Origin: Candidatus Spongiisociaceae bacterium
GTDB lineage: Bacteria > Actinomycetota > Acidimicrobiia > Spongiisociales > Spongiisociaceae
DNA: 64,000 nucleotides
Direction: 5' to 3'
NCBI GenBank assembly: GCA_965262915.1
Contig: OZ253564.1
Coordinates: 2,880,001 to 2,944,000 of the forward strand
The notes below the pieces were generated by a model. The model was given only the letters and a program-made list of their open reading frames with translations. It searched no databases and was not told the DNA's origin. How positions within the stretch are numbered: position 1 is the stretch's first letter; each line of letters opens with the position of its first letter. The position numbers and the translations under genes are program-made. Below are positions 43,168-59,654 of the stretch, one piece after another.

Positions 43168-44097
43168 CTACGGCCGGTACCAGTAGCAGAGCGACACCGC
43201 GAGGCGCTCCATAGTGACCAGGTGGGTCTCCTCGGGCTTGGTCTTGAGGGTCGCGTCGGCGCGCCGGACGGCGTCGATGGCGCGCATCAGGTTCTCGTCT
43301 GTCATCCTCTTGCCGGCCTGCCAGCTCTTCCGCGTCGGAAAGGCGTCGGGCTTGGAGCCGATCCACCCGGCGAAGGTTTCCATATCGGGTGCGACCGAGG
43401 CGAGTGCCCGTCTCCTGAGGTCGTTTTCGATGGCGCCGAGCAGCAACAGGGGGTGGCTGTAGGTCAGAAGGTCGTGCAGCCGGCGGAGGGCGTCCTCCAC
43501 GGCTCCCTTGGCGAGGGCGTCGGTGAAATGCCAGATCGGCTCGTCGGGACGGTTGCGGAAACGGCCCAGGATCATGTCGCCGGTTATCGGCTCGTCGGCC
43601 ATCATGAGCTGGTCGAGTGCTTGTGCCAGTGCCTCGATGTCGGATCCGAAGCGTCCCACGAGCGCTCCGACCGCCTCGGCGCTCAGACGTAGTCCCCGAT
43701 CCCGGGCTGCTTGGCGCAGCCAAGAGGCCGCGTCCTTCTCCCGTAGCTTCCTGATGGTCACCACCTGGCCGTGCTTCCGGATGTGGGCCGGGAGCGGGGC
43801 GGGCAGCCTTCCACCCGACACCAGGACCACCTGGCGGTCGCCGGAATCCGGCCGGCCGAGCAGGTCGGCGATCGCCGACGCCTCCGTGGAGCGCAGGAGG
43901 TGGGCATCCATCACCATTAGCCCGGTGCGTCCCCCGAACAGCGAGCCCGACTGGAGCGCCGGGACCACGGGCTCCACCTCCGGTCGGATGGTCGCATCGC
44001 CCGCCTCCGACTGGCCCCGGCCGGGTACGTCGACCCGCACGATGTCCGCCGGATGTATCACGGAGCCGGCGAAGATCTCGGCCGCCCGATCGAGCAT
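43168..44097 (-). CDS. holA: DNA polymerase III delta subunit (may start at CTG 44157)
   Basis: SGSLFG motif. Conserved comEC-holA-rpsT synteny. Confidence 0.85.
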   Translation of the reverse strand: MLDRAAEIFAGSVIHPADIVRVDVPGRGQSEAGDATIRPEVEPVVPALQSGSLFGGRTGLMVMDAHLLRSTEASAIADLLGRPDSGDRQVVLVSGGRLPAPLPAHIRKHGQVVTIRKLREKDAASWLRQAARDRGLRLSAEAVGALVGRFGSDIEALAQALDQLMMADEPITGDMILGRFRNRPDEPIWHFTDALAKGAVEDALRRLHDLLTYSHPLLLLGAIENDLRRRALASVAPDMETFAGWIGSKPDAFPTRKSWQAGKRMTDENLMRAIDAVRRADATLKTKPEETHLVTMERLAVSLCYWYRP

Positions 44098-44153
44098 CTG
44101 CTTGCGCTCGCCGGGGCCGGGTTCGCGCGGTCCGCTGATATGGACCAGGGCCT

Positions 44154-44861
44154 TCAGAGGTTCCAGCCTCCGCCGACCTGTATGAACGAGCCGCTTATGT
44201 AGTCGGTGTCGTCACGCAGGAGGAATCTCACCGCCGTGCACACATCCTCGAACTTTCCGTGACGGCGGGCCGGGATCCGGGCCAGGGCAGGCAGTGGCTC
44301 GGAGTTCTCCAGAACGCCCGGGAGGATGGCGTTCACCGTGATACCGTAGGGCGCTTCCGTCACCGCCATCGTCTTGGTGATGATCAGGATACCGGTCTTA
44401 CCGATGTAATAGGGAAGGCTACGGGGGCGGGCGGAGAGGCGATCGGCGCCCGAATCCGATACGTTGATGATCCTCCCCCCACCGTTGCGCAGCATCGGAA
44501 GCATCGCCCTGGAAACGTAGTAGGTGGCCGAAACGGTGGAGGCTATCTGGGAGTCCCATTCGTCGATGGTGAGGTCGTCGAGGTTCTTGAGGATGAAGTC
44601 GCCGACGTTGTTGACCAGGGCATCGAGGCCGCCGACCCTCGACCGGATCATCTCCGCCATGTGCTCGACATCCGACGGAACGGTCACGTCCGCCTGGATC
44701 GGGTGGGCCTTGCCGCCCCTCTGCCGGATCACCTCGGCCGCCGACTCCGCCTCTGGCCGGCTCGACCGGTAGTTGACCACCACCTCGTGGCCTTCGAGTC
44801 CCAGGTATATTGCGATCGCCCTTCCCAGACCCCTCGCGGACCCTGTTACCAGTACCTTCAT
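44154..44861 (-). CDS. SDR oxidoreductase, pteridine/dihydrofolate reductase (TmpR)-like
   Basis: TGSARGLG, VNNVGDF, YYIGK, PGVLENS and C-terminal GGWNL. Confidence 0.8.
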   Translation of the reverse strand: MKVLVTGSARGLGRAIAIYLGLEGHEVVVNYRSSRPEAESAAEVIRQRGGKAHPIQADVTVPSDVEHMAEMIRSRVGGLDALVNNVGDFILKNLDDLTIDEWDSQIASTVSATYYVSRAMLPMLRNGGGRIINVSDSGADRLSARPRSLPYYIGKTGILIITKTMAVTEAPYGITVNAILPGVLENSEPLPALARIPARRHGKFEDVCTAVRFLLRDDTDYISGSFIQVGGGWNL

Positions 44862-44929
44862 AGACGCGCCATCTCCGCGGTCGTGCCCTACCGAGGTGAT
44901 GGTAACGCCGCCGGGCATTTCGGAGAGCG

Positions 44930-45465
44930 TCACGGCGGGAGATGTATCACTACGTCGCCTTCCAGATCCGTGCGGCGGATTTCCATTCCGGCTTGCTCGA
45001 GTTCGGCCAACAGCTCAGGAGAGGGGTGACCGTAGCGGTTGGGGCCCACGCTCACGACCGCCACCGAGGCGCCCGAATCGATCAGCCATCGGGAGTCGGA
45101 GGTGGCCGCACCCTGATGCGGGACCTTCAGCACCGCGACCGGGGGAGGTGGCAGTTCCCGCTGGGCGATCCGTTCGACGTCCCCCGACAGCAGTATCCGG
45201 GTCCGGCCCAGGGTGGCCACCATGACGATGGATTGGTCGTTGAGGGATGCGTACCTGCGCAGGGGCCCCAGCACCTCGAGCCCGATGGAGCCGATGAGGT
45301 AGCGGCCCGGCCGGGGCGTGGAGATGTCGGTGTGGGCGGAGGCGGTGCGGATGAAGGCGGCGAACTCGTCGCCCTGTCCGGGGAAGGGTACGTACCACAT
45401 CGCCCGGACCGGGATGGATCCCACCACGTCGGAGAGGCCGCCGTAGTGATCGTGGTGAGGGTGGG
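44930..45465 (-). pseudogene. comEC: comEC 3' half (remainder of the metallo-beta-lactamase domain)
   Basis: HPHHDHYGGL..., NDQSIV, LLSGDVE, LKVPHQGA, ISVG-like VSVGPNRYGHPS and RTDLEG. Confidence 0.92.
45452..45465. other. att core (left junction) GTGGTGAGGGTGGG
   Basis: Exact 14-bp direct repeat with 57247-57260. Confidence 0.9.
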
Positions 45466-45638
45466 CACACCACTACTCATGTTTTTATCTATACTTATCA
45501 GACCTCAATAAACACCATTGACCTGGTGTTATAGACGTATAACAGGAGGGACCGGGGATCCAGGCATTATCATTAGATATCACCGAATTGCACTACTATA
45601 GTAGTAACTGAAGTAGTATCTACCGTTAGTGGTGTGCA

Positions 45639-46805
45639 ATGAAACGGAAAGGGCAACCCCTCACAGCAGCCTTCGTACGGTCAGTGAAACGGCCAGGCCG
45701 GTACGGCGACGGTCGGGGTGGTCACGGTCTGAGCCTGTTGGTGAAGCCGATGACCAACGGCCGCGTCTCCCGCTCATGGTCGCAAAGGGTCCTCGACCCG
45801 CGAACAGGGCGACCGACCGGCATCGGGCTCGGTGCGTACCCGGTCGTAACTCTGGCGCAAGCCCGCAAGATGGCGCTTCACAACCGTCGGGAACTCGACG
45901 CCGGACGCGACCCAAGAGGCGGCGGACTCCCCACTCTCGAAGCAGCCACCGAGAAGGTGATCGCCTTACACCGGCCGGACTGGAAACCCGGCTCTCGCAC
46001 CGAACACCAATGGAGACAATGGCACCGCGACTACATCGCGCCGGCCATCGGCGACCGGCTGGTGTCGGAAGTCACCACCGCCGACGTGCTCCGAGCGTTG
46101 ACACCGATATGGTCTTCCCGGCCGGTGGTCGCCCGACGGGTCCGCGAGCGGCTCTCGCTGGTGTTCCGATGGGCCATGAGTCAGGGCTACCGGCCAGACG
46201 ACCCGGCCGGACCGGACCTGCTCTCGGTACTCCCCAAGCAGAACGGCAAGCAGCACCACCAAGCGCTCCCCCATGGCGCCGTACCGGCAGCCATCCGCAA
46301 GGTGCGGGCGTCCACGTCCACTCTCCCGGTCCGGCTCTGCATCGAGTTCGTAGCGTTGACAGCGGCCCGTCACGGCGAAGCCCGACTCGCGCAGTGGCCC
46401 GAAATCGACTTCGACACGGCCATCTGGACCGTTCCACCTTCCCGTATGAAAGCAGGCCGTGAGCACCGGGTACCCCTCTCCGGCCGGGCGCTGGAAGTGC
46501 TCGCAGAGGCCCAAGCCGTAGACGACGGGTCCGGGCTGATCTTCGCGATGAACGGGAAGGCCATCAACGCGTCCACCATCGGCGCTACCTTCCGCAGACT
46601 GGAGATAGCCACCGCCCACGGTCTCCGGTCGGCTTTCAGGTCATGGTGCGCCGATGAGGGGATCAAGAGGGAGACAGCTGAAGAGTGCCTCGCCCACCAG
46701 GTCGGCAGCGCCGTCGAGTTGGCCTACCAACGGTCCGACGTGATCGAACTGCGCCGGCCAGTCATGCAAGCCTGGGCCGAATACATCACCCACAAACTGT
46801 TATAA
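45639..46805 (+). CDS. int: P4-like tyrosine integrase
   Basis: GLSLLV...GLGAYP, ARHGE, MKAGREHRVPLS, HGLRS and LAH...AY. Confidence 0.93.
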   Translation: MKRKGQPLTAAFVRSVKRPGRYGDGRGGHGLSLLVKPMTNGRVSRSWSQRVLDPRTGRPTGIGLGAYPVVTLAQARKMALHNRRELDAGRDPRGGGLPTLEAATEKVIALHRPDWKPGSRTEHQWRQWHRDYIAPAIGDRLVSEVTTADVLRALTPIWSSRPVVARRVRERLSLVFRWAMSQGYRPDDPAGPDLLSVLPKQNGKQHHQALPHGAVPAAIRKVRASTSTLPVRLCIEFVALTAARHGEARLAQWPEIDFDTAIWTVPPSRMKAGREHRVPLSGRALEVLAEAQAVDDGSGLIFAMNGKAINASTIGATFRRLEIATAHGLRSAFRSWCADEGIKRETAEECLAHQVGSAVELAYQRSDVIELRRPVMQAWAEYITHKLL

Positions 46806-46891
46806 GCCTATAACATAGACACCCGCCTAATCCAACTGTTATAAGCCTATTATCCTTAGTGTTAGTTGACATTCATAACCAATAAGCCTAA
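46796..46891. promoter_or_regulatory. Direct repeats upstream of alpA (putative operator)
   Basis: AACTGTTATAAGCCTA twice plus a partial ATAAGCCTA in AT-rich DNA. Confidence 0.55.
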
Positions 46892-46932
46892 CGTGATATC
46901 ACCAATCGAAGTAGCGGACGAGAAGGGCAAAC

Positions 46933-47127
46933 ATGGCATCGGAACGGCTCATATTCCGAGTTGATGAGCTCGCGCAACGGCTCGGAGTCTCGACACAGAC
47001 CATCCGACGGTGGGAAAAAGCCGGAGACTTCCCCCGGGCAATCCGACTGGGCCAATCCGCCAGAAGTTCCATAGGCTGGAAAGCCGCAGACGTAACCGAC
47101 TGGATTGACAGCCGACCGGCCGCGTAG
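46933..47127 (+). CDS. alpA: AlpA-family regulator/excisionase
   Basis: ELAQRLGVSTQTIRRWEKAGDFPRAIRLG...GW...V.DWI. Confidence 0.9.
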   Translation: MASERLIFRVDELAQRLGVSTQTIRRWEKAGDFPRAIRLGQSARSSIGWKAADVTDWIDSRPAA

Positions 47128-47216
47128 CGCGTAGACTCAGAACGAAGAACCCCACCGGTGGGCGACCGGTGGGGTTCAAATCTCCAAGAAAGAAGGTGAC
47201 AGTCAAGGAGGACAGA

Positions 47217-48683
47217 ATGCACTCTACCACCACCCGGCAGTATCCGCCACCGGTCACCCGTATACACGAAACCGCCGACAGATATCTGGTGTATCGGGAA
47301 GGCATCGACCGGCCCGTCTCGATCTCCGCCGCCGACTGGGAACACGACAACAACACCAACCCCTGGGACAAGACCAAACAGGACGCCAACCTAGCCGCGC
47401 TCCACAACGACGAACCCCACCCGTATCCATCCCCCAAAATGCTCTGGTCCGACTACTCAGCCATCGCCGACTTCCAGGCCGAACAGGCAGCCGCACGGTG
47501 GCACAAGCTCGCGTGGGACCGGATCGAGGCCGAACAGCTGCCAGCGTCCAACCGATCAACCGCCGAACTGTTCGACGAACTCGCCGAAGCTCAACAACTC
47601 GGTGCCGTCGAAGTCGCCGAGGTGCTCCGGGGGTTCTTGCGGCTGCGCGGTGTACACGAAGAGGACCTCGGCGGGCCGTACTGGTGGACCGACATACCCG
47701 ACCTCGACCGGCTGCCACCACCACCCGCCCCGTTGCTGACCCGAGACGACGGGCAGACTGTTGTGCCCGCCGACAGGTCAATCAGCATCTACGCACCACC
47801 AGAACGGGGCAAGACGTGGATCGGGTTCATGGTGGCACTGGCAGCTATCAAAACGGGTGGGCGGGCCGTAGTCGTCGACCATGAGATGAACGTCCGGGAC
47901 TGCGCTAACCGGTTCCGGCTGCTCGGCGGCTACCGCTACGTTCGCAACCCCGACCAGTTTCGTTATTTGTACGGACCGGAGACCCAACCCGCCGATGTCG
48001 AAGCATCCGCCCGGTGGCTCGCAGCCCGCCCCGGATCGGTGGTTGTCATCGACTCGGTGAACCGTGCCGGCGGCTACTCCACCCACCCCACCGAGTATCT
48101 CGAATGGGCCGACAGCAACGTCAAGCCCTACCGCACCAAACAGGTCGGCGTTGTGCTACTCGACCACGAAACCAAGACCCGCCCCGCGCAAGGCTCCAAC
48201 TATCAGGGACCGATGGGCACCGGCCAGAAAGTCGCCGACGTGGACATCGTGCTCCGGGTAGACGGCACACCGTGGACCACCACCGAACCGGGCACGATCA
48301 CCCTTCACCGGATCAAGGACAGACACGGCGACCTGCCAGGCCCGCCCGCCGTCGCGTCCATCACCGGCGACTATCAAGACGGCGGATTCGCATGGCGGAT
48401 ACACCGTCCGGCCACCGCCACCATCGAACAAGCACCCGGCGACTCGTCCCGCGCCCGGCGACTCAAGCGGCTAGAGAAGGCCATCGTGTGGGTACGCAAG
48501 CAGCCCGAACCCGTGACCGCCTTCGACTTGGCGAAGGGTATCGGAGTAGGGAAGGTGACCGCACTCGACTACCTGAAAGAACTCGCCGCCGGCGGCGAAC
48601 TCACCCAACACACCAAGGGGCGAACGTTCGTGTTCTCAGCACCCGACGACCAGGGCATCTTGACCCTTCCCGAGCCCACATGA
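47217..48683 (+). CDS. Replication protein: RecA-like/AAA_25 helicase with C-terminal winged HTH
   Basis: Walker A APPERGKT, Walker B VVVIDS, LLDH and KDR. C-terminal DLAKGIGVGKVTALDYLKEL. Confidence 0.75.
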   Translation: MHSTTTRQYPPPVTRIHETADRYLVYREGIDRPVSISAADWEHDNNTNPWDKTKQDANLAALHNDEPHPYPSPKMLWSDYSAIADFQAEQAAARWHKLAWDRIEAEQLPASNRSTAELFDELAEAQQLGAVEVAEVLRGFLRLRGVHEEDLGGPYWWTDIPDLDRLPPPPAPLLTRDDGQTVVPADRSISIYAPPERGKTWIGFMVALAAIKTGGRAVVVDHEMNVRDCANRFRLLGGYRYVRNPDQFRYLYGPETQPADVEASARWLAARPGSVVVIDSVNRAGGYSTHPTEYLEWADSNVKPYRTKQVGVVLLDHETKTRPAQGSNYQGPMGTGQKVADVDIVLRVDGTPWTTTEPGTITLHRIKDRHGDLPGPPAVASITGDYQDGGFAWRIHRPATATIEQAPGDSSRARRLKRLEKAIVWVRKQPEPVTAFDLAKGIGVGKVTALDYLKELAAGGELTQHTKGRTFVFSAPDDQGILTLPEPT

Positions 48684-48688
48684 CCTAT

Positions 48689-48812
48689 CGTTCAAGTGTT
48701 CATTTGAACGTTCAAACGCCACCTGAACGATGGCTTACGTTCAATCGTTCAAGTGTTCAACCCACCCCGTAGGGGTTGAACATGCACGTTGAACACCCAT
48801 CTGACGTTCAAG
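48689..48812. repeat. Iteron-like GTTCAA/TTGAAC cluster, putative origin
   Basis: Many copies in both orientations immediately after rep. Confidence 0.65.
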
Positions 48813-48831
48813 TCAACGAGAAAGGACCACC

Positions 48832-49068
48832 ATGACCACGCAAGACGAACGAACCGCAGCACTCCTGAAACTCGGTGCTGCCATCTTCGGACGCAACAAC
48901 CTCATCGGCAGCGACTTCGACCACATCCACCTCGAAGAGACAGAAGCCGACTACGAACAAGACCGCGCCGGCGTCCTCATCCAGTTCTCCATCAGCTGGC
49001 ACGCACTCGGAAAGATCGCCACCGAACAGACCTGCGAAGCGATCACGGTCCTCCTACCAGATCACTAG
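48832..49068 (+). CDS. Hypothetical protein
   Basis: RBS GAAAGGA. Base composition similar to neighbouring genes. Confidence 0.6.
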   Translation: MTTQDERTAALLKLGAAIFGRNNLIGSDFDHIHLEETEADYEQDRAGVLIQFSISWHALGKIATEQTCEAITVLLPDH

Positions 49069-49168
49069 CCACCCGCCCCACCCCCGGTAGGGCACCGCCC
49101 GGCCCGGCCGCCCGTGCCAGCGCCGACCGGTGTAGCCTCGGAGACACACACACCTTCCCGGCGTCTGG

Positions 49169-49459
49169 TCAGCGGTCGAGGAGCTCGCGGACCAGGGTGT
49201 GCCACGCCTCAACTGCCGGCGACACCGGACGCCGAGCCCGATTCTCCGCCACCGTCTTCGAGATATGGCATGACCGGCATAGCACCTGAAGGTTGCCAAG
49301 GTCATAGGATGCGCCGCCATCTGCTAGCGCGATCACATGATCCACTTCGAGCTTGCCCGCACACCCACAGGATCGGCACCTATGCTGGTCACGTTCCAGC
49401 ACTGCCCGGCGGACGACCCGCCATCGGTTCCGGTTGATAGCCGAGCTCGGGTGTGCCAC
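49169..49459 (-). CDS. HNH endonuclease (phage packaging type)
   Basis: RWRVVRRAVLERD..RCRSC...EVDHV...NLQVLCRSCHISKT. Confidence 0.9.
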   Translation of the reverse strand: MAHPSSAINRNRWRVVRRAVLERDQHRCRSCGCAGKLEVDHVIALADGGASYDLGNLQVLCRSCHISKTVAENRARRPVSPAVEAWHTLVRELLDR

Positions 49460-49699
49460 CCCGACTTCATCCCATCCGACGGACACATTGCTCAGGCGCG
49501 GGCGTATGTTCACACCAAGAGTCCTGGGCAGTCACAACTATCACTCCGACTAAAGACAGCGTCGCAGTTGTTACAAAAGAAATCATCCATCTGCCTATGT
49601 GGTATATATGCGAACTGATCCCACTGGCAATTGGCACACTTCTTGTATGGAATACCTACCCCGCCTGTAGGAGGCGGCTAAGGGATCCGGTCCTTTATG

Positions 49700-51132
49700 G
49701 GCTCATCGGATTTCAGTGGGGAGTGACCGATGGGAGTAGGTCCCAGTTGGGTTTCCCCGCGTAGAGAAGGGCGCGGATTCGGTAGTTCGCGAAGTTGCGG
49801 AACCCGAACGCTGCTCGTTTGATCCGTTTGATGAGGTTGTTGAGGGCTTCGGTGGGTCCGTTGGTTACCTTCGAGATGTGCCAGTTGGTGATCTGGGGGG
49901 TCCAGCGGGCGATGGTACGACCCAGCTTGTTGATCTCGGGTGGGCAGGATTCGTGTTGGAGGTCGTCTGCGAGCTGGAGGGTGTATCGGAGAGCAAGGAC
50001 CGGACTCTCGATCCCGTAGATGCCTCGTACCGTCTCTTTCGCGTGCCAGGCTGTGCGCACTTCCCCGTAGGGGTCACCAGCATCGAGGAGACCACGCAGC
50101 CGTATTTGACCCCGGTCGCTGATCCTCTCATGCGCAGCGGTTAGGAGCCGCCGTATCCGATACAGCGGGTCATCCTTGCGGCCTCGATGCCCGAGGGTTT
50201 CGTTTTGGACTCTTCGTCGTACCTCGTCGAGACGCTGGTTGGCGAGGCGGATGACGTGGAACGGGTCCGCTACCTGCAGCGCGTGCGGCAGCACCCTGTC
50301 ATACGCCTTCCGATACGAACCGGACATGTCCAACACCGCCCAGCGGATAGCCTCACACCATTCGGTGGGTTGTGACCGGAACCAGGCTGCGGCGCTTTCT
50401 GCTGTTCTACCAGGGACTATGTCGATCAGCTGGTGGCCGCCAACGTCGACGACAGAGGTGCACCAGACTTTGGTACGCCAACGGCCCCGACGCCAGAACA
50501 ACGTCTCGTCCACTCCCACAGCTTCGACGGTCCCGACCCGATCGGTGTCTGCTTCCAGCAGCGCTTCGCCCCAGCGGCCAACCTCTTTGTTCACCGTATG
50601 CCAATCACAACCAAGTTCTGCGGCGACCTCGTCGACCGAACGGCCCCGCCCACCCACCTGGATGGTCACCCACCGGGCCGCTCGGGATGTCAACAACGCC
50701 CGTTGGGGACCAATCTTGGGGTCTTGTTCGATGAACGATCTGAGCGCACAGTCGGGGTTCGGACATGTCCAGCGCCGTTTCCGCCACCGCAGCCGCACAG
50801 GCCGGCCGAACGCCGGTAAATCCACCAACACAACCGTCCGATAGCCCTTCGACCACACCGACCCGCCACAGGACTCACACAACGGCCGGGGCTTGCGGGA
50901 CCGGATCACCACCTCCAACGGTGCCTCCTCGCCCGGGTCGTTGATCCCTACCAGATCAACCTCACCTAGGCCTACCAACTTCTCGCACATGCGCGTAGGA
51001 TCAGCTTCCACAGGGGTCCTCCTGCCTCGGATGTCATTACCAACACCCGATTATGGAGGACCCCTCCTCACTTCTGGTGGATTCCAACTCCCCCTGGCAG
51101 ATCCCCTACTCCCCACTCATTTCCGAAGAGCC
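49700..51132 (-). mobile_element. ISL3-family element (transposase 49713-51011), 8-bp target duplication CCTTTATG
   Basis: IRs GGCTCATCGGA / TCCGAAGAGCC. Direct repeat at 49692-49699 and 51133-51140. Motifs GVDE, LDMS, ADPFH and EALNN. Confidence 0.95.
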
Positions 51133-51667
51133 CCTTTATGTTCCCTACTTCGGTGACAAGGGTATTCATAGTTTGGGCAAGGTCGTTTGTATTTTTGGCG
51201 ATCTTCCCAATTGGTGTGTTGTTGCCTTCAGCAGAGTTTGATCCAGAAATACCCGGTCCAGCGAGATGCAGATGTGTAGAGCTCTTCACGCGCCAGAATA
51301 GAATTCGCCGATCGTAACTGACTGAGATCTTAGTCTCCCGTAGTCGACTGAGGAACTCTTTACTAGAAGCCCAGCCCATGTCAAACTCATAACGCTGGCC
51401 ATTGTCCATATCGCCGAGGTTCTTAGTTCCATATACATGGTCTCTATCGTCATAGGGTTCATACTCGGGAGAAAAGCACAGTTCGACATTCCGTGCAACT
51501 CTCTTGCCTATATTCTCGATTTCGAGAACCAAGATGTCCAAAGAAAGCAAACGTACCCGCGGTCGTGGACGACGCGTATATCTCCAAACTAGGAGGGTCC
51601 CAGTCAATCCGAGAAGGGTCGCCACGGCTTCGCTGTGTACGCTGAGCCATTCACCGATACCTGTCAT
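51068..51667 (-). CDS. Low-GC membrane-anchored cargo (moron) protein; native C-terminus replaced by ISL3
   Basis: N-terminal TM helix, LEIENIG..VARNV pattern and RBS GAGGAAGG. Removing ISL3 gives ...NIKDRIP*. Confidence 0.65.
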   Translation of the reverse strand: MTGIGEWLSVHSEAVATLLGLTGTLLVWRYTRRPRPRVRLLSLDILVLEIENIGKRVARNVELCFSPEYEPYDDRDHVYGTKNLGDMDNGQRYEFDMGWASSKEFLSRLRETKISVSYDRRILFWRVKSSTHLHLAGPGISGSNSAEGNNTPIGKIAKNTNDLAQTMNTLVTEVGNIKGLFGNEWGVGDLPGGVGIHQK

Positions 51668-51697
51668 CTGTAACCTTCCTCATAGTTTGTAATCGGT

Positions 51698-53218
51698 CTA
51701 GACAATCGCCGACCGAAGCCGCCAGTTCCGGCTCCGCCCGGCGTGCCAATGACGGTAACCGGTCGCGACAGCCAGTATCGCCGCCGCTGCCGCGTCGTCA
51801 CGCGCCCGAACACGTCGGCCACCCTCCGACCCCTTCGCCAGCTTCGCGTTACCCGCCGGGTCAACCATCACTCGCGCTTCGGACATGGCCGCCGTGAGTA
51901 GCAGAGAATCCGCGGGCCGGACATGGCCACCCAACACGGCCGCCCGGAACTGGCGCACGTCCTCGCCGCCGTCCTTGTACCCCTGACCCCTCACTACCAG
52001 TTGAGCGGTCGGGAAGCGTAACGCGTCGAGATGCTGCCGCAGCTCCGCCGCCCGCCACCGGTCACACACCACCGCCGCCGGTTTGCCCCAGCGGATCAGA
52101 GCTTCCGACAACAGCCGCCGAACGTCGGAAACATGACCACCGGCGATCACCAACTCGCCCCGCTCCGCCATCTTCGAGTAGAGCGAACCCACACCGTCGG
52201 CCAACCCACGGCGGCGAAGGTCGGGCTGTGCGGGGAACACCGCCACCGCGTCCAGCCACCCGGACCGGTGATACGCCGCTGCCGCTGACATAGCCGCCGA
52301 CGTACCAAGATCGACGCCCAGCACGTAGCTGCCCCGGACCGGTTCGGGTTCCGGCAACCCGGCTGCCCGCTTCCACGCGGCGGCGTCCAGTAGCACGGCC
52401 CGGTCAATGTCCGCCACGCCGAGATTCAGCCGGAGCGCCTTGAACGAGGCGAGCGCGTCCGGGTCGTTGCGGGCGTCCACAATCTCCGCCTGAATCCGGG
52501 CCTTCAAGCTCGGCAGGTGATCCACCGACGGGTTCGCCCGCCGAATGGTTCGCATCCAAAACGGCGGATCATCCGGACGGGCTGCGTGAACCTGGGCGTA
52601 GGCAGCCGACTTGAGCAGACGGGCGAACCAGTGCGTCTGGTCCGCCGGTCGGGTACCCAACGCGATCAAGCGGGAACCCGGCACCTTCCCTAGGCCGGTG
52701 CGAATCGCTTGGAGCATCCGATCCGCCCGCCCCGGTTCCCACTGGCTGGGTTCGTCGAGAAGCGCCAACGCGGGCCGTAGCCCGTGAGCCCGCCCCGGAT
52801 CGGAACCAATACACCGAATCCGGCAACCCGACGCCCGGAACTCAAGCGTCGCTCGATTCGCGCTGTCTTGCTTCCGCCACGCCGACCGGTCGCCCAAGTC
52901 GTAGCGGTTACCCAAGAACGCGAGCACATCCTCGAAGATGATCCGTGACTGGTCGAAGCTCGCCGCCACACACACAACCTCACGCCGCCGACCATGCAAC
53001 GGCCCCGACGAGTCCACCATCGCCGCCGCTATCCCCGCCACAAGCGCCGACTTGCCATTACCCCGGCCAACCGTCAGAGCCGAATCGCCCGGCCCCCGGA
53101 ACGCCCCTCGAATGAACCGCCGCTCCCACGGCAACACCACGAACGGCTGCCCGTCGTGGTCGCCGCCCGCCAACGTCAGTCCGGCGAGGTAGGCGATGAT
53201 GTCAGTTGCAACAGCCAC
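51698..53218 (-). CDS. terL: Terminase large subunit
   Basis: PWERRFI, GRGNGKS, LLDE, ANPS, GVDLG, CDRW and DDAAAA. Confidence 0.9.
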   Translation of the reverse strand: MAVATDIIAYLAGLTLAGGDHDGQPFVVLPWERRFIRGAFRGPGDSALTVGRGNGKSALVAGIAAAMVDSSGPLHGRRREVVCVAASFDQSRIIFEDVLAFLGNRYDLGDRSAWRKQDSANRATLEFRASGCRIRCIGSDPGRAHGLRPALALLDEPSQWEPGRADRMLQAIRTGLGKVPGSRLIALGTRPADQTHWFARLLKSAAYAQVHAARPDDPPFWMRTIRRANPSVDHLPSLKARIQAEIVDARNDPDALASFKALRLNLGVADIDRAVLLDAAAWKRAAGLPEPEPVRGSYVLGVDLGTSAAMSAAAAYHRSGWLDAVAVFPAQPDLRRRGLADGVGSLYSKMAERGELVIAGGHVSDVRRLLSEALIRWGKPAAVVCDRWRAAELRQHLDALRFPTAQLVVRGQGYKDGGEDVRQFRAAVLGGHVRPADSLLLTAAMSEARVMVDPAGNAKLAKGSEGGRRVRARDDAAAAAILAVATGYRHWHAGRSRNWRLRSAIV

Positions 53219-53290
53219 GACTTGGACCCTACCCACTCTGTTAACCAACATTCAACATCTTTCACATATGTAAGGCGTTAGACTGTTGCT

Positions 53291-54577
53291 ATGACTACCA
53301 GACAGAAGATCGAACTGAGGCTCTCAAAGGTCCGCTCCCGGTTGAACGAACTTGCCGGAGTCGAGGAACTCACCGACGAACACCGGGCCGAACTCGACAA
53401 CCTCGAAGGTGAGTTCGGAGACCTCGAACGCCGGCATCGGGCGGCGATCCTGTCCGAAGCCCACGAGGAACGCGCCGCGGTGGGGATGTTCCCCGACGGT
53501 GACGACCAGGACGGCGCCGAGGTCCGGCAGTTGCTGGGCCGGGTCACCCTCTCCGACTATCTCGGTCCGGCGGCTGCCGGTGCCGGCAGCCGGGGCGCGG
53601 CGGCCGAACTCAACGCTGCCTTGGAAGTACCCGAGGCGGGTCCGTCCGGCGGGGTGGCGGTTCCGTGGCGGGTGCTGCTTCCCGATGGTGGGATCGAGGC
53701 CCGTGCGTTCACGACCACCGCCAACAACGACGGTACGGAGATGCAACGCCCGATCCTGCAGCGGCTGTTCGGGCCGGGGATCATGAACACGCTCGGGGTT
53801 CGGATGGACTCGGTTCCGGTCGGTCGGGCGGAGTGGCCGCTCATCACGTCCGGCGTGGCACCCGCCCAGGCGAAGGAACCCGACGCTGCCGCGGCTGCGG
53901 TGGTTGCCGGATTCAGCTTCGCCAATCTCAAGCCGAAGCGGTTGACCGGCGTGTACGAGTACACCCATGAGATGGCCGCCAGCGTCGCGGACCTAGAGGC
54001 GGCGCTGCGGCGTGACCTCGCCGATGCTGTGAGGTCGAACATGGAACAGCAGATCGTCAACGGGACCGCTCCGACTAACCAGAACCCGCAGAACGTGGAG
54101 GGGTTCATAACCAAGCTCACCGGCTCGGACCTGTCCGCATCGCAGGCAACCGCGGCCGATTACGGCAAGCTGCACGCTCTTGCGGTTGACGGTGTCCATG
54201 CCAGCACCGAGACGGAAGTTATGTCGGTGATCGGTGACGAAACGTATCAGCACGCCGCCGGCGTGTACATCACCGGTTCCGGCGAGTCCGGTTCGGAACT
54301 GTTAAAGCGCCGGTCCGGTGGTTGTAGGGCTTCGACGTACATTCCCGCTATCGCGTCCAAGAAACAGTCGGCGATTCTGCACGCGGCCGGGTCGAACGGT
54401 GGGGGGATCATGCGGGGCGACTCGGTGGCGGCTGTATGGCCGACGCTCGAAGTGATCCGGGATATCTACACGAAGGCGTCCCAGGGTGTCGTGCTGACGT
54501 GGCTGACGTTGTGGGACGCGGTGGTTGCGTTCCGTTCGTCGGCTTACAAGCAGATCGACATACAGATACGGGCATAG
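53291..54577 (+). CDS. Major capsid protein (HK97-like, coiled-coil N-terminus)
   Basis: N-terminal helical scaffold, GGVAVP, LKPKRL...EM and IVNG....N.EG. Located in the head-gene cluster. Confidence 0.8.
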   Translation: MTTRQKIELRLSKVRSRLNELAGVEELTDEHRAELDNLEGEFGDLERRHRAAILSEAHEERAAVGMFPDGDDQDGAEVRQLLGRVTLSDYLGPAAAGAGSRGAAAELNAALEVPEAGPSGGVAVPWRVLLPDGGIEARAFTTTANNDGTEMQRPILQRLFGPGIMNTLGVRMDSVPVGRAEWPLITSGVAPAQAKEPDAAAAAVVAGFSFANLKPKRLTGVYEYTHEMAASVADLEAALRRDLADAVRSNMEQQIVNGTAPTNQNPQNVEGFITKLTGSDLSASQATAADYGKLHALAVDGVHASTETEVMSVIGDETYQHAAGVYITGSGESGSELLKRRSGGCRASTYIPAIASKKQSAILHAAGSNGGGIMRGDSVAAVWPTLEVIRDIYTKASQGVVLTWLTLWDAVVAFRSSAYKQIDIQIRA

Positions 54578-54581
54578 GCTC

Positions 54582-55481
54582 ATGGTCGAACGGACCCGAC
54601 CGTTAGAGGTCCGGCTCGCGGGCCGGACCCTTCGCGGCGTCGCGTTGCGATATGGGGAACAGGCACGAGACCGGGCCGAGATGTTCGAGCCGGGGGCGTT
54701 CCAACCCATAGGGTCGGTGTCTCTGAACCTGCAACATGACCGGTTCCGGGAAGTAGCAAGCACCGACGGGGGATCGCTGCGGATCACCGACACGCCCACC
54801 GAGCTACGGATCGAGGCCGACCTGCGGGAGGGTTCCGCCGAACTGTCGTTGGTGAGACGCCGCGCTCTGCGTGGTCTGTCCGTCGAGTTTCGGGCACTGG
54901 CAGATAGGCGGAACCCCGCCGGTCTCCGGGTGGTACAGCGGGCGGAGCTTCCCGCTATCGGCTTGGTCGATTCCGGTTCCTACCGGACCGAGGTTGAGCT
55001 ACGCGCCGCGTTCGGGCAAGCGTGGCTAACCGCCGATATCCGGTTCGGGAAGCGGATGCAATGCCAATGCCAAGGCCCGACTTGTACCGATGTTGAGTTC
55101 GAGCCTGGCGCGTTCGAGGACCTGATCGAACGCCGCGACGTGCTCGCCGTTGGTGGCGGCGGTTTCGCCAACGTCCTGGGGAGCACGCGGCGGGGAACGC
55201 TGCTTGTCGACCAGACCGACAAGGGTCTGCGGGTCGGTCTCACCAACGCGGGAACGGACACGGCCCGCCGCATCGTCGAAGCCGCCGCCGTGGCCGATAT
55301 CTTTGTGAGGCCGCTGATCGACCTCGAAGCGTCCGAGTACGAAGACGACGGCACCACCAGACGTTTCACACGGGCGGTCACACGGGCGCTGTTGGTGAAA
55401 CCCACCCCGAACGCCAAGGGTCACCGTCCGGCCCGCATACGGGGCGTCCAGACCCGCAGGAGGCGACGCCCGTGGCTGTAA
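54582..55481 (+). CDS. HK97-family prohead protease with a second degenerate protease-like domain
   Basis: LRGVALRY, EMFEPGAF, LQHD, GLSVEF and IGLVD..Y. A second FEPGAF...LGST..GTL unit follows. Confidence 0.8.
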   Translation: MVERTRPLEVRLAGRTLRGVALRYGEQARDRAEMFEPGAFQPIGSVSLNLQHDRFREVASTDGGSLRITDTPTELRIEADLREGSAELSLVRRRALRGLSVEFRALADRRNPAGLRVVQRAELPAIGLVDSGSYRTEVELRAAFGQAWLTADIRFGKRMQCQCQGPTCTDVEFEPGAFEDLIERRDVLAVGGGGFANVLGSTRRGTLLVDQTDKGLRVGLTNAGTDTARRIVEAAAVADIFVRPLIDLEASEYEDDGTTRRFTRAVTRALLVKPTPNAKGHRPARIRGVQTRRRRRPWL

Positions 55482-55789
55482 CCATCGACGCGGACGCCCT
55501 CGCCGAAGCCATCGGCGGTGAGAACTCACCTACCGTCGTTGCCCGCGTACTGGAAACCGCCACAACCATCGTCGAGGACTACGCACCCCACGCGCCCGAC
55601 GCGATCCACAACGAAGCCTCCGTCAGATTCGCCGGGTACCTGTACGGGTCTGACTTCGGCGGAATCCGCGACGAAACAATCGGGCCGGTGACCGTCACGT
55701 ATCCGCTCAACCATGCGGCCATGTTCCGCAACTCGGGGGCCGCCGCGTTGCTCACCCGGTACAAGCGACGGCGGGCAGGGGCGGTCTGA
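55472..55789 (+). CDS. Head-tail connector-like protein
   Basis: A...VEDYAP.AP....EA..R...YLY and C-terminal AAALLTRYKRRR. Between protease and portal. Confidence 0.65.
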   Translation: MAVTIDADALAEAIGGENSPTVVARVLETATTIVEDYAPHAPDAIHNEASVRFAGYLYGSDFGGIRDETIGPVTVTYPLNHAAMFRNSGAAALLTRYKRRRAGAV

Positions 55790-56850
55790 TGCGCTGGCCT
55801 TGGGGGCGTGAGAAACGGGAAAGCCAGCCGTTCACCGACGCCGTAGTCGGCACGATCTACGCGCAGGCCGCCGGAACCGTCGCGGCTGACCCGTCCGGGC
55901 TCGCCGCGCTCGAAGTAGCGGCCGGACTGTACGCCCGCAGCTTCGCCGCCGCCACGGTCGAACCAGCCGAACTCCAGCCGGTCATAGGCCCATCCGTGCG
56001 GGCTCTGATCGCCCGGAACCTGATACGCCGCGGCGAAAGCGTTCACCTGATCGAAGTCAGCGGCGGCCAGGTCGAACTCATCCCCGTCGGGTCGTGGGAC
56101 GTGCGCGGACCCTGGACCGAGAGGGACTGGTGGTACCGGGTTGACACCTTCGGACCGTCGGGCAACGCAACCCACTACACACCCGCCGGCGCCGTCGTGC
56201 ACGCCCGCTACGCCGTGGAGCCGGCCCGCCCCTGGTTCGGAGTCGCCCCCCTCGATTGGGCCCGCTCAACGGGCACCCTCGCCGCCTACCTTGAGACACG
56301 GTTGGGCCAAGAAGCCGGCGGAACCGTCGCCCACGTCCTGCCCATCCCCCAAGACGGCGGCGACGGCAGCACCGACGACCCGCTCGCCGACCTCAAGGCT
56401 GACATCCGCAACGCGAAGGGTGGGACGGTGCTCACCGAAACCACCGCGGGCGGATGGGGAGAAGGGAAGATGTCCGCCCCTCAAGCCGACTGGCAGCCAC
56501 GGCGGATCGGTGCGAACCCGCCCGCAGTGTTGCCGACGTTGCGGGCTGACGTGTTCGGCGCGGTACTCAACGCGTGCGGAGTGCCCGTGTCCTTGGCGAC
56601 TGACGCCGATGGAACTTCGCAGCGGGAAAGTTTCCGCCGGTTCCTGACCACAGGCTTGGAACCGCTCGGGGAACTGGTAGCCGCCGAACTCGCCGCCAAG
56701 TTGGACACCCCCGGCGTCCGGTTCGACTTCACCGGAACCTACGCCCACGATCTCGCCGGACGTGCTCAAGCGTTCGGGAAGCTCGTCGCCGGCGGCATGG
56801 GCACCGACCGGGCGCTACAGATATCCGGGCTGCTGGTGGCCGATGGGTAA
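55789..56850 (+). CDS. Phage portal protein
   Basis: LIRRGES, VVHARY...WFGVAPL and ACGVP. Coupled to the connector gene (TGATG). Confidence 0.8.
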   Translation: MRWPWGREKRESQPFTDAVVGTIYAQAAGTVAADPSGLAALEVAAGLYARSFAAATVEPAELQPVIGPSVRALIARNLIRRGESVHLIEVSGGQVELIPVGSWDVRGPWTERDWWYRVDTFGPSGNATHYTPAGAVVHARYAVEPARPWFGVAPLDWARSTGTLAAYLETRLGQEAGGTVAHVLPIPQDGGDGSTDDPLADLKADIRNAKGGTVLTETTAGGWGEGKMSAPQADWQPRRIGANPPAVLPTLRADVFGAVLNACGVPVSLATDADGTSQRESFRRFLTTGLEPLGELVAAELAAKLDTPGVRFDFTGTYAHDLAGRAQAFGKLVAGGMGTDRALQISGLLVADG

Positions 56851-57214
56851 GCCGGTCTGTTCGCTCGACGGCTGTACCGAACCGTCGAAGGCTCGCGGCT
56901 TCTGTAAGAGCCACTGGGCGCGGGTCCGGTTCCGGGAGCGTCGGCTGGCCGAAGGGCGGAAACCGCTCAAAGAGAACCCAAGACCCGAAGAGTTGCTGGT
57001 CCGCTACTGGACACCCGCCGAAGACGCCCTCATCCTCGCTGAGATAGCCAAGGGCTTGGGGAAGGCCGACTGGCTGCCCGTGGCCCTTCAACTTGGACGC
57101 ACCAGGCAGGCGTGTAGGACCCGTGCGACCTTCTTGCGGAAACGGGATCGTCTCGCGGACGGATCTCCAGCCGAACACGTTGGCATAGCGGAAGTGGTAA
57201 CCGAAACTTCCTAA
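56843..57214 (+). CDS. Zn-finger plus Myb/SANT-like DNA-binding protein
   Basis: CSLDGC...ARGFCKSH, then WTPAEDALIL...DWLPVALQLGRTRQACRTR. Confidence 0.6.
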   Translation: MGKPVCSLDGCTEPSKARGFCKSHWARVRFRERRLAEGRKPLKENPRPEELLVRYWTPAEDALILAEIAKGLGKADWLPVALQLGRTRQACRTRATFLRKRDRLADGSPAEHVGIAEVVTETS

Positions 57215-57246
57215 AACACTCTGACCTGGGGATATAGGCGGTATCG

Positions 57247-57260
57247 GTGGTGAGGGTGGG
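57247..57260. other. att core (right junction) GTGGTGAGGGTGGG
   Basis: Exact repeat of 45452-45465. Confidence 0.9.
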
Positions 57261-58737
57261 ACACCACCAGCAGGTCTATGGCCCGTATGCCGAATCGGGA
57301 CAGCCCGTCGCGAACCTTCAACCCGCTGCTCCCTCCGTCGATCAGTACCGTTTCGCCGCCTTCGCCGAGCAGCAGCAGAGCGTCTCCCTGCCCGACATCC
57401 AGCGCCACGAAGGCGGGTCGGACCGAGGTGAGAGCGAACGTGTGAGGGGCGGCGGAGACCGTGAGCACGCTCACCACCAGCACGCACGCCACGACCGCTG
57501 CCGGACGGATCCGACCCCACATCGCCCCCGACCCGAGCACCAACAGGACCACGAAGCCCCGCCAGTCGATCTGGGGTAGGTCGGCGGTGATCGTTGCGAT
57601 GCTGAGCACCACCTCTGCCGCCATGGCTGCCGCGGCTACGACCACGTCGATCCCGGCCAGGGCGCCCGCCCCGGCCAATCCGGTGGAGGCGACCACGAAC
57701 GGAGCCGCGGCCACGTTGGCGACGGGCGACCACAACGGGATGGTCCCCACGGCAACCAGCAAGATGGGCGCCACCCCCAGTTGCGCCCCACACGACGCGC
57801 CCAGCGCGGTTCCCACCCATCTCGGCCGCAGCGCTGCGAACCAACCGGCGCCGATCACCACACCGGCGGTGGCGGCCACCGAGAGCTGGAATCCCAGGCT
57901 GAAGGCAAGCTCGGGAGAGGCGAGGAGCAGGAGGCCTACCCCGCCGGCGATGACCACCCAGATGTCGGGGCGTAGCCCGAAAGGCCGGGCCACCAGAACC
58001 AGTCCGGCCATCGTCGCGGCCCGAACCACCGAGGGATCGGGTCCGATCAGCAACACGAAGAAGGCCAGTCCGCCCAGGCCGATCACCGCCCGGCGCCGGG
58101 AACTCCATCCGAGGGGACCGGCCACCAGGAACAGGGCGCTCAGGAAGAGAGCCACGTTGCTTCCCGACACCGCCACGAAGTGGGACAACCCGGCGCGACG
58201 CATCCGCTCGACGTCCACCTCCTCCAGATGGGAGGTGTCGCCCAGCAGGAAACCGGCGAGGAGGGCCCGGCCGCGACCTGCGTCCGGCCCCAACCGTTCG
58301 ATGATCCCCGCACGGATAGCGACGATCGTCTGACCCAGCCATCCACCGGATGCTCCGGCGGTGCGGGACTGCACCACCTCTCCCCGCCAGGTCACCCTAC
58401 GACCGGGACCGCCCCCCTGGGCTGCATCCGGGATCGGCTCCATCTCGGTCCTGATCCACCAACGGCTGGTCCTGGGCCAATGGGCAACATCGCCGCGGAG
58501 CCAACCGACCGGACCGTCCCAGGGTCGGCGCCGACCCTCCTCCCCCACGGCAACGACCCGGGCACGCACCAGTCCGTCGTCCCGCATCCGGATGCCGTCC
58601 GACAGCGCCTCCACCACCAACATCACCTCGCCGACGGGGAGTTCGAGCCCGAGCGTGCGCTGGTCGCGGGCGGCGAGCATCAGACCGGCCACCATCCCTA
58701 CGGCAGCCAGCCCCATCACCAGGCCCGCCGTCCACTG

Positions 58738-58902: not shown

Positions 58903-59036
58903 GGCGAGGACCGCCGGCCCGAGCGCCGCGATCAGCGCGACCGGGGACCACGAGATCCATACCCCGCAAGCGATCCCGATCCATATGGCGGCGGCGCCCG
59001 CCAGGTAGAGGACGGCGCGCCGATCCGGGAGACGGC

Positions 59037-59654
59037 TTATCGACTCACCACCGCGTAATCACGGAGACCGGCCAGCTTTCCTTCGCCGATGCCCGGTACA
59101 TCGAGCAGGTCCTCCAACGTCTCGAACGGGCCGTGGGTCTCGCGATAGGTCATGATGCGGGTGGCCAGGACCTCCCCCACTCCGGGCAACCCGGTCAGCT
59201 CGTCGACCCCGGCGCGGTTCAAATCGACCGGGAACTTCCTGGCTTCGGGTCCCGGCGCGGCTACCGGGGTCGGAGTAGCCCCGTCCGCCCACGGTACGAC
59301 GAGCCGCATCCCGTCCGCCACCGGGGCGGCCAGGTTGATGTTTCCCAGCCTCCCGCCCAGGCGGGCCCCTCCGGCCGCAACTATCGCGTCGGCCACGCGG
59401 CTCCCGTCCGGAACCGATACCAGCCCCGGCGCCGTGACCGCCCCGGACACATGGACGGTCAGCATGGCCGGAAGGGACGCCACCGGCGACGAGGTCGGGG
59501 GCGTGGTGGCGGCGGGCGGTACGGAAGGAGGGGGCGCCTGGGGCCGGTGCCAGAAGGCGAAGGCGATGGCGAGAGCCAGACCGGCTCCCACGATCGGTAC
59601 GACCACGCGCCGCTGGGAGATGTTCGCAGGTGGCCGGCTATCGGTATCGGGCAT
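59037..59654 (-). CDS. comEA: Competence protein ComEA
   Basis: TM helix, SLBB domain VHVSGAV..PG, and HhH motifs LPGVG and VPGIG. Confidence 0.93.
   Translation of the reverse strand: MPDTDSRPPANISQRRVVVPIVGAGLALAIAFAFWHRPQAPPPSVPPAATTPPTSSPVASLPAMLTVHVSGAVTAPGLVSVPDGSRVADAIVAAGGARLGGRLGNINLAAPVADGMRLVVPWADGATPTPVAAPGPEARKFPVDLNRAGVDELTGLPGVGEVLATRIMTYRETHGPFETLEDLLDVPGIGEGKLAGLRDYAVVSR

Follow-up and report, generated by a model that had tools for sequence, protein, structure and literature searches.

A Capsid-Encoding Island That Splits comEC, and Its Sister in comM, in the Genome of a Candidatus Spongiisociaceae Bacterium

In this work, we describe an island with phage-like capsid genes that splits the competence gene comEC of a Candidatus Spongiisociaceae bacterium (Actinomycetota, Acidimicrobiia). 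The island lies in a stretch of 64,000 nucleotides, hereafter called the window (contig OZ253564.1 of assembly GCA_965262915.1, positions 2,880,001 to 2,944,000). It is bounded by a perfect 14-bp repeat placed within the codons of the HxHxDH motif of ComEC, and the same site was found empty in a public metagenome. A second capsid island splits comM in the same genome, and integrases of the same family lie beside broken comM and dprA genes in relatives. We think it likely that the comEC island is an integrated, helper-dependent satellite comparable to phage-inducible chromosomal islands of the capsid-forming kind (cf-PICIs), with an integrase lineage that targets transformation genes, which would fit an avoidance of chromosomal curing.

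Results

Insertion of the Island in comEC

The 14-mer GTGGTGAGGGTGGG occurs in the window in two exact copies, both on the + strand (table 1), and these are also its only copies in the whole genome, a single contig of 5.06 Mb. None of 100 dinucleotide shuffles of the window contained two or more matches. The likeness between the two copies stretches to ~26 bp with two indels of one base, and the island between them measures 11,795 bp, or ~10.35 kb without an insertion sequence (IS) that it carries. On the minus strand, the 5' part of comEC finishes at the right copy (...DLLVVSHPHH) and runs into 11 codons from the island before a stop, and the 3' part resumes at the left copy (HPHH-DHYGGLSDVV...) and reads on to the stop at 44930. 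By Pfam, the N-terminal piece holds the Competence domain and the first 53 positions of Lactamase_B, the remainder of which lies in the C-terminal piece. Deletion of positions 45466-57260 in silico, by a script, produced a single open frame of 715 aa with HPHHDH restored. An earlier prediction made from the sequence alone (the original prediction) had named a 14-bp repeat around an 11.8-kb element whose removal would rejoin comEC in frame and restore HxHxDH, and it holds on both counts. Judging from these features, the insertion is site-specific, within the HxHxDH codons of comEC, and excision would restore the gene.

Near each end of the island lies one copy of the motif TGACCTGGKG..., a candidate arm site; these are its only matches in the window and the shuffles have none, for a pattern that was derived post hoc. 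Scanned for promoters, the attL arm showed two weak matches to the consensus, one of them directed outward toward the comEC 3' fragment, and they were not used as evidence. The locus otherwise shows the usual comEA-comEC-...-holA arrangement. The overlap between the start of a short-chain dehydrogenase/reductase (SDR) gene and the comEC stop suggests that they belong to one operon, in which case the island would separate SDR and holA from the comE promoter.

Natural Alleles of the Locus

The locus was present in 20 public runs from 8 studies. Natural variants were assessed on assembled contigs (31-mer graphs) from four of these runs, belonging to four studies, which were placed on positions 43500-59500 of the window. 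In run X19, one contig of 1,662 nt with a depth of 10 passes directly from 45451 to 57247, leaving out 11,795 bases, with an overlap of 14 bases, and shows a few strain differences in the flanks and none in the core. This contig is a natural empty attachment site (attB) with an intact comEC, an allele that the original prediction had proposed to look for. Depth over the island in the same run was ~0-3 in most bins (one bin reached 8; the IS bins were excluded) versus 6-14 over the flanks. Near-zero island depth, seen in X15 and X19, was counted only alongside the bridging contig of X19.

The flank contigs of X1 and X11 stop at 45465 and start again at 57247, and the island contigs start at 45436 and stop at 57276. 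The branch points thus fall exactly on the core's outer edges, and these two samples seem to contain occupied as well as empty sites. The lower depth of the island compared with its flanks (~14-29 vs 20-32 in X1, ~8-14 vs 19-43 in X11) agrees with such a coexistence. Each of these runs also provided one contig that joins 49691 to 51133 with an overlap of 8 bases and 0 mismatches, that is, an island free of the IS; the island therefore circulates in those populations without the IS and with its cargo gene intact.

The joint of an excised circle (attP), also named as a thing to look for, was not listed in the contigs of the four runs, which drop rare variants, so that rare circles could be missed. 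Contigs run unbroken through 45452 and 57260, the two positions at which an attP branch would interrupt them, and this argues against an abundant circle. The island contig of X11 matches the window exactly and the flank contigs of that run show 8-9 base differences from it, which fits a mixture of strains better than excision within one clone.

Besides the island, a repeat of ~170 bp similar to a miniature inverted-repeat transposable element occupies positions 58738-58908 of the window, between comEA and the conserved start of comEC, and has ~80 copies in the genome with 87-93% identity. The first ~43 codons of the annotated comEC open reading frame (ORF) come from this repeat, and relatives align from residue ~44. 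Its copy number explains the contig depth of more than 1000x at the 5' edge of comEC, and the repeat region seems to vary between populations, as contigs of three runs have loose ends at 58772/58776.

Gene Content of the Island

The features of the island and of its flanks are given in table 1. The integrase and AlpA frames are uninterrupted and carry their Pfam domains, in line with the original prediction, which had considered both genes intact. By its Pfam and PHROG content, the island is bounded by an integrase, encodes a capsid and is devoid of tail genes, and in these respects its designation as a capsid-forming satellite, also made at the outset, is supported. We use the label cf-PICI-like on account of its own head and packaging genes and its lack of tail and lysis genes. 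Profile searches of the island ORFs (at least 50 aa for tail and lysis functions) found no tail, lysis/holin, repressor or defense family, and a helper phage would presumably be needed to supply the tail and lysis functions.

Table 1. Features of the comEC Island and Its Flanks (Positions in the Window)
Feature	Position	Strand	Basis or remark
holA, downstream of SDR	43168-44097	-	Pfam
SDR, start overlaps comEC stop	44154-44933	-	Pfam
comEC 3' fragment, metallo-beta-lactamase-like (MBL)/nuclease domain from HPHH-DH on, 177 codons	44930..45463	-	Translation; Pfam Lactamase_B positions 51-182
attL core, left 14-bp copy	45452..45465	.	Exact match; X19 empty-site contig joins here, 14-base overlap
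Arm motif TGACCTGGKG..., left, candidate integrase or AlpA arm site	45519..45533	+	Pattern scan
Tyrosine integrase, P4-type, 388 aa	45639..46805	+	Pfam Arm-DNA-bind_3, Phage_int_M, Phage_integrase; phrog_1
AlpA-type excisionase/regulator, 64 aa, beside integrase	46933..47127	+	Pfam Phage_AlpA 9e-9; phrog_66
AAA_25 (RepA/RecA-like) ATPase with C-terminal helix-turn-helix, putative replication initiator/helicase, 504 aa	47169..48683	+	Pfam AAA_25 3e-7
Three iteron-like 16-nt direct repeats just 3' of the replication gene, putative origin	48687..48759	.	Repeat search; origin role inferred
HNH endonuclease, packaging-associated, 114 aa	49169..49513	-	Pfam HNH; phrog_589
ISL3-family IS, 1,433 bp	49700-51132	-	DDE_Tnp_ISL3 transposase 49713-51011; 26-nt inverted repeats
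Low-GC (48%) cargo gene, N-terminal hydrophobic segment, split by the IS	51134..51667	-	IS-free form 182 aa, ending at 49678
Terminase large subunit (TerL), 517 aa	51698..53251	-	Pfam TerL_ATPase, TerL_nuclease; phrog_9 8e-57
Major capsid protein, HK97-type family, 428 aa	53291..54577	+	Pfam Phage_capsid 1e-5; phrog_10
Prohead serine protease S78, 318 aa	54525..55481	+	Pfam Peptidase_S78; phrog_80
105-aa protein, conserved, encoded between the protease and portal genes; possible head-tail connector	55472..55789	+	Alignment, kept in 4 islands
Portal protein, 353 aa	55789..56850	+	Pfam Phage_portal 2e-11; phrog_12
Zn-ribbon + Myb-like DNA-binding protein, 150 aa, final gene before attR, small terminase subunit (TerS) or regulator candidate	56762..57214	+	Pfam Myb_DNA-binding
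comEC 5' fragment, Competence channel domain + MBL start, 553 aa	57211..58872	-	Pfam
Arm motif TGACCTGGKG..., right	57222..57236	+	Pattern scan
attR core, right 14-bp copy	57247..57260	.	Exact match; X19 contig
comEA (SLBB + HHH), upstream partner of comEC	59037..59654	-	Pfam

TerL has ~26% identity with terminases from HK97-like cos phages, which likewise use an HNH partner, and its pairing with HNH suggests that packaged island DNA would have cos ends. The Pfam score of the capsid protein is barely above the cut-off (25.2 vs 24.2 bits), and neither capsid nor portal had a tblastn match in 50,697 phage records. Pfam detected no primase domain in the AAA_25 ATPase, and the 105-aa protein matched no family in Pfam (at E values up to 1), PHROGs or a PDB profile search. 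For the Myb/Zn protein, PHROG matches were limited to the Zn-ribbon part of HNH families, and neither this protein nor a 78-aa ORF gave a decisive match in Pfam (E up to 1), PHROGs, PADLOC or the PDB profile search.

The block formed by TerL, the cargo gene and HNH lies on the strand opposite to the rest of the island. This TerL-HNH block (49169-53251) is inverted relative to the sister island described below (locus L030:8453-10481) and to the capsid islands of relatives G020 and G013, in which TerL, HNH and capsid are co-linear. The IS-free contigs of X1 and X11 show the inversion as well, and an artefact of assembly is therefore ruled out.

The IS belongs to the ISL3 family and does not figure in the original prediction's account of the island. 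It is flanked by an 8-bp target duplication, CCTTTATG (49692-99 and 51133-40). At least 11 copies in the genome encode a transposase identical to that of the island, and further copies are 77-99% identical. The cargo gene split by the IS had no match in Pfam, PHROG or PADLOC, and the PDB profile search returned nothing decisive.

A Sister Island in comM

A second capsid island with the same gene set was found in this genome (G000), at genome positions 2,989,678-3,000,212 and 53 kb from the comEC island, with all ORFs open and on a single strand. Its proteins are 79% (protease), 61% (HNH), 55% (105-aa protein), 54% (portal) and 54% (TerL) identical to those of the comEC island, and a Myb/Zn protein stands at the equivalent place. 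The replication gene differs, a D5_N/DUF5906 primase-helicase occupying the position of the AAA_25 ATPase. On its left, the sister island adjoins a gene for a Mg-chelatase ATPase of the ComM type, followed directly by dprA, and its right flank encodes codons 1-21 of ComM. Copies of the 11-mer CTTCCACGCTG, spaced 10,524 bp apart, form the boundaries of the island, whose removal in silico restores a ComM of 490 aa. In both islands, the integrase adjoins the 3' part of the target gene. One genome thus carries a pair of sister satellites that interrupt different genes of DNA uptake or processing.

There are 13 loci of this integrase family in the genome, with 48-56% identity. Competence targets were also considered for its other integrases outside tRNA genes and rejected, their neighbors being a methyltransferase/SerRS, a type ISP restriction-modification enzyme, a TM2 protein, a DUF1015 protein and an IclR-like protein. 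One further member lies in the window itself (24078-25202, minus strand), ~50% identical and beside a tRNA-Asn gene (25417-25492, minus strand), where it presumably heads another island. Decayed pieces of the same family occur elsewhere in the genome, namely pieces of a portal gene at 0.62 and 4.38 Mb and, at 4.48 Mb, an integrase with a stop together with part of a TerL gene.

The Integrase Family and Its Targets in Related Genomes

Among 60 related genomes, each representing one species, the integrase family was present in 14 of the 28 that belong to the same bacterial family as the window and in none of the 32 from eleven other families. The nearest relative of the comEC integrase in these 60 genomes, the 28-genome family included, has 57% identity. 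Scans with single-protein patterns revealed no close ortholog in public genome, viral or metagenome contigs; two metagenome matches had 29% and 37% identity.

In relative G001, an integrase 67-68% identical to that of the sister island lies 185 bp from comM, which is broken at the core CAGCGTGGAAG, the same as in G000 and at the same codon (...SVE|AHV...). In G001 and in G007, dprA is in two pieces, the N-terminal part reaching residue 211-212 and the C-terminal part beginning at residue 200, and each C-terminal part lies ~100-200 bp from an integrase of the family. The overlap of 12 residues is what would be expected from an att duplication of ~36 bp. The comM/dprA junctions of G000, G001 and G007 and both arms of the comEC island have in common the arm motif TGACCTGG(G/T)G, which supports a common descent of the recombination modules. 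In a tree of 21 full-length sequences, from which the G001 dprA integrase (5' end only) was left out, the two comM integrases form a clade with support of 100/100, and the comEC integrase groups with the dprA integrase of G007 (90/83).

Capsid islands of this type were present in four of the 60 related genomes. Their architecture is kept in the islands of G020 and G013, two other species, so that four islands in three species have in common a gene set of ~10 kb with open frames, 28-79% identity and no tail genes. A head-closure match (phrog_25) was found only in the G013 island. This conservation, seen also in the sister island, speaks for a maintained entity rather than prophage debris.

Three further observations concern these relatives. 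The comM-dprA operon of G001 was hit twice, by one island in comM and another in dprA (contigs G001:C68 and G001:C242). G001 also contains fragments close to the comEC island (portal 82% and capsid 77% identical, on contigs C126 and C200), and its comEC is intact. The dprA island of G007 carries as cargo a serpin gene of 404 aa (locus L084, G007:C85, 6556-7770, minus strand).

comEC in Related Genomes

All 27 genomes of the same family with a comEC match have the gene unbroken at the motif. That of G015 is frameshifted near residue 280, and that of G028 is split across contigs near residue 400. In a sample of the class, a ComEC match was present in 146 of 401 genomes. Among the matches whose 3' side could be judged, none had an insertion that cut it at the motif; roughly a dozen others, fragmentary at the ends of contigs or stopping short of the motif, fell outside that judgement. 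The counts for the relatives and for the class sample include the unpublished genomes G032, G043, G243 and G381, on which no particular claim depends.

The comEC of G156, a distant species and the one candidate with a complete genome, was considered as a further island-split gene and ruled out as a frameshift, since its N- and C-terminal pieces are adjacent in different frames and have no insert. This gene (locus L044, G156:C1:1076500-1094500, at 1118-2718) has no HxHxDH in any forward frame and looks like a pseudogene broken at that motif.

We also rejected the idea that the integrase exploits a universally conserved coding sequence for HxHxDH, given that nine of nine relatives have HAHxDH with 2-4 mismatches to the 14-mer. 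The proline of HPHHDH seems to be native rather than brought in by the island, because the core of the empty site in X19 shows no difference.

Discussion

A Probable Satellite and Its Likely Targeting of a Transformation Gene

ComEC is the uptake channel and nuclease of natural transformation, ComM a branch-migration helicase and DprA the loader of RecA. We propose that recombination by the P4-type integrase joined a 14-bp core of the island to comEC at its HPHH codons. The inserted island cuts off the MBL nuclease domain and would part the 3' fragment and the downstream genes from the comE promoter, so that ComEC is expected to be non-functional for transformation as long as the island is integrated. 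Upon infection by a helper, the island would be excised by the integrase and AlpA and would replicate from the iteron region; TerL and HNH would then cut the island and package it into its own small HK97-type heads, the helper supplying the tails. While integrated, the island would prevent the import of DNA able to delete it by homologous recombination, as in the model of chromosomal curing (Croucher et al. 2016, PMC4774983). That the satellite blocks transformation and thereby protects itself had been proposed from the start, and the proposal gains indirect support, at the level of sequence, from the sister island in comM and from the comM and dprA integrases in two species.

The comM and dprA lineages can be read as the outcome of selection for insertion into transformation genes. 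The choice of target was probably not accidental, given that the same integrase family has lineages in both genes, and the island family appears to be specialized in switching off natural transformation. The second idea of the original prediction, a toggle between a channel-only and a full form of ComEC, found nothing in its favor; catalytic mutants of the beta-lactamase-like (nuclease) domain of ComEC lose transformation or show it greatly reduced (PMC12455585).

Several results weigh against this interpretation. No second island-split comEC at the motif was found among the 60 relatives or among the judgeable matches of the class sample, and the search for homologous integrases at the same comEC codons, suggested with the original prediction, turned up none closer than 57%. 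The exact 14-mer is missing from comEC in the nine relatives compared. Of the 13 loci of the integrase family in this genome, 6 are within ~350 bp of a tRNA gene and 5 are beside unrelated genes. The same tendency is seen in the relatives, where 52 integrase loci divide into 19 adjacent to tRNA genes, 1 beside pup, 29 unclassified and 3 in competence genes. This survey used the flanks on the att side; two loci (L058 and L074) were too short to classify, and partial integrases of G001 (contigs C198 and C195) were left out. No competence family was among the 25 listed of the 39 Pfam families matched by 53 flank ORFs of 27 unclassified loci. The backbone of the integrase tree is unresolved and the competence-targeting integrases were not recovered as one clade. 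The capsid islands of G020 and G013 are inserted at tRNA-Ala and beside pup, outside competence genes, and the dprA island of G007 contains a serpin gene and IS fragments and is without a capsid module. From the places of these capsid islands and the content of the dprA island, we infer that the targeting is a trait of the integrase lineage and not of the satellite.

Other points of the same kind concern the island itself and its host. No small ORF of the island matched a TerS family in Pfam or PHROG, profile searches identified no certain head-tail connector in it, and the copy in the window may be impaired, as it carries the IS and an inverted TerL-HNH block. The genome has no match to the tape-measure family PF10145, hence no obvious tailed helper prophage. 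The competence of the host is unproven: in Micrococcus luteus, also an actinobacterium, transformation depends on ComEA/ComEC and a Flp pilus (PMC4322843), and in our genome only three homologs of the TadA/CpaF-type ATPase and no Flp pilin were found.

Alternative Explanations

The island might simply occupy a neutral landing site, comEC, comM and dprA being dispensable, conserved and rarely expressed genes that a lineage no longer transforming could lose at no cost, and the island a passenger that gains nothing from a block of transformation. The many copies of the ISL3 element with identical transposases and of the ~170-bp repeat suggest relaxed selection, comEC is frameshifted in G156 and G015, and most integrases of the family use tRNA genes. 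Against this stands the full-length comEC of nearly all relatives, which indicates that the gene is maintained. Moreover, three genes of one pathway were hit by separate integrase lineages, the same sites in comM and dprA recur across species, and a rough estimate (~10 genes among ~4,000, ~15 distinct non-tRNA targets) gives a chance of ~1e-5 for three hits or more. We therefore regard a neutral site as unlikely. That the island is a defective prophage remnant, in which a temperate phage has decayed to an immobile module for head formation and packaging, seems to us very improbable. The IS, the inverted TerL-HNH block, the failure to identify TerS and the decayed fragments of the same family at 0.62, 4.38 and 4.48 Mb would suit such a remnant. 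A remnant would hardly account for four islands in three species with a common tail-less set of open frames, for perfect repeats, for a mismatch-free IS-free copy in two further samples or for a presence that is polymorphic; and morphogenesis genes devoid of close relatives in 50,697 phage genomes are what is expected of a separate satellite lineage.

A regulated, reversible switch of the active-lysogeny type, in which excision under defined conditions and without killing would restore comEC, render the cell transformable and be followed by re-integration, is in our opinion quite unlikely. Excision would leave no scar and keep the frame, the genes for integrase and AlpA are intact, X1 and X11 seem to contain occupied sites alongside empty ones, and there are precedents in phi10403S of Listeria comK (PMC7397523) and SpyCIM1 of Streptococcus pyogenes mutL (PMC4689407), both described as active-lysogeny switches. 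SpyCIM1 is also a small phage-related island, and in these elements, as would be the case here, precise excision restores the host gene. The difference is that regulated non-lytic excision was demonstrated there by experiment, whereas here we have a polymorphism of presence and absence and no circle was seen. Against such a switch stand the lack of an attP joint in the assembled contigs, in which rare circles could be missed, and the contigs running through 45452 and 57260; the differences between flanks and island in X11 fit a mixture of strains, and the comM island would keep transformation impaired even with comEC restored.

Comparison with Known Systems

The satellite that we propose is best compared with the cf-PICIs, such as EcCIEDL933, described from Proteobacteria and Firmicutes with a median size of 14 kb (de Sousa et al. 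2023, PMC10085698). The comEC island resembles them in its size class (10.35 kb without the IS), in its left module of integrase, AlpA and a putative replication gene, and in having its own TerL, HNH, capsid, prohead protease and portal with no tails or holins. It differs from them in its actinobacterial host, in the gene order TerL-HNH-capsid-protease-small protein-portal, in the lack of a match for TerS and two head-tail connector genes, in its very divergent proteins and in its insertion inside a protein-coding competence gene. Among Actinobacteria, elements of the phiRv1/phiRv2 type of Mycobacterium were scored as PICI (PMC10085698), and the Streptomyces satellites MulchRoom and MiniFlayer are low-GC parasites of virulent phages with direct terminal repeats (PMC10690885). 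By their descriptions, these are like the comEC island in being actinobacterial elements of ~10 kb with capsid and packaging genes and, for MulchRoom and phiRv, an integrase. Satellites with their own head genes thus exist in Actinobacteria, and the available text of those sources reports no insertion of them in competence genes.

Insertion of mobile genetic elements (MGEs) into comEC is established elsewhere. Elements of the Phi1207.3/Tn1207.1 type interrupt comEC in S. pyogenes and S. pneumoniae, and in the pneumococcus this interruption was reported to inhibit transformation (PMC12587576, PMC4774983); comEC is reported to be interrupted as well by a mef cassette and, in Piscirickettsia, by IS elements. 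Unlike the comEC island, the Streptococcus elements are a phage-like chimera of ~50 kb or a resistance cassette of Firmicutes, not tail-less capsid satellites. MGEs that target comM are known from Aggregatibacter, Acinetobacter, Mannheimia, Francisella and Pseudomonas syringae (PMC4774983, bioRxiv 10.1101/2024.08.13.607808), and prophages and other elements occur in comK, comYC, comFA and ssbB (Croucher et al. 2016, PMC4774983; bioRxiv 10.1101/2024.08.13.607808). The islands described here share with the comM-targeting elements an integrase-driven, site-specific interruption of transformation genes that recurs at orthologous sites across species. They differ in that one integrase family within one actinobacterial genus affects three genes, with two islands in one genome.

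A literature search, in which the supplementary lists of de Sousa et al. 2023 and Croucher et al. 2016 were outside the scope, retrieved no description of a satellite in comEC or of an MGE in dprA. What appears to be new is therefore the presence in comEC of a capsid-forming island from an actinobacterium, the use of dprA as target, the coverage of three pathway genes by one integrase family and the occurrence of two such sister islands in a single genome. Already established are the insertion of MGEs into comEC and comM in other bacteria and capsid-forming satellites mainly in Proteobacteria and Firmicutes. The novelty claimed by the original prediction, that of a capsid-forming satellite in comEC in Actinobacteria, appears to hold for the actinobacterial satellite context and needs to be toned down, comEC being a published target of MGEs in Streptococcus (PMC12587576, PMC4774983).

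Implications

A broader scenario can be entertained, although we hold it only tentatively. One lineage of P4-type integrases may have diversified so as to knock out the steps served by ComEC, ComM and DprA, with capsid-forming satellites riding on these integrases; transformation would then be active in these bacteria and costly to mobile elements, and the islands, polymorphic in wild populations, would determine which cells are able to take up DNA, thereby acting as a competence switch at the level of the population, possibly driven by excision.

The retargeting of one integrase family from tRNA genes to coding sequences informs on the evolution of integrase specificity, and a divergent lineage of capsid-forming satellites is documented in a high-GC Gram-positive host. 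The occupied, empty and IS-free alleles found in nature are ready material for studying how the island is cured, how it excises and whether it depends on a helper. Mobile elements and transformation are in a conflict so far described mainly in Firmicutes and Proteobacteria; it is extended here to Actinobacteria, and dprA joins the list of targeted genes. Natural transformation has been documented for very few Actinobacteria, and the three targeted genes provide indirect evidence that it operates in the environmental bacteria described here.

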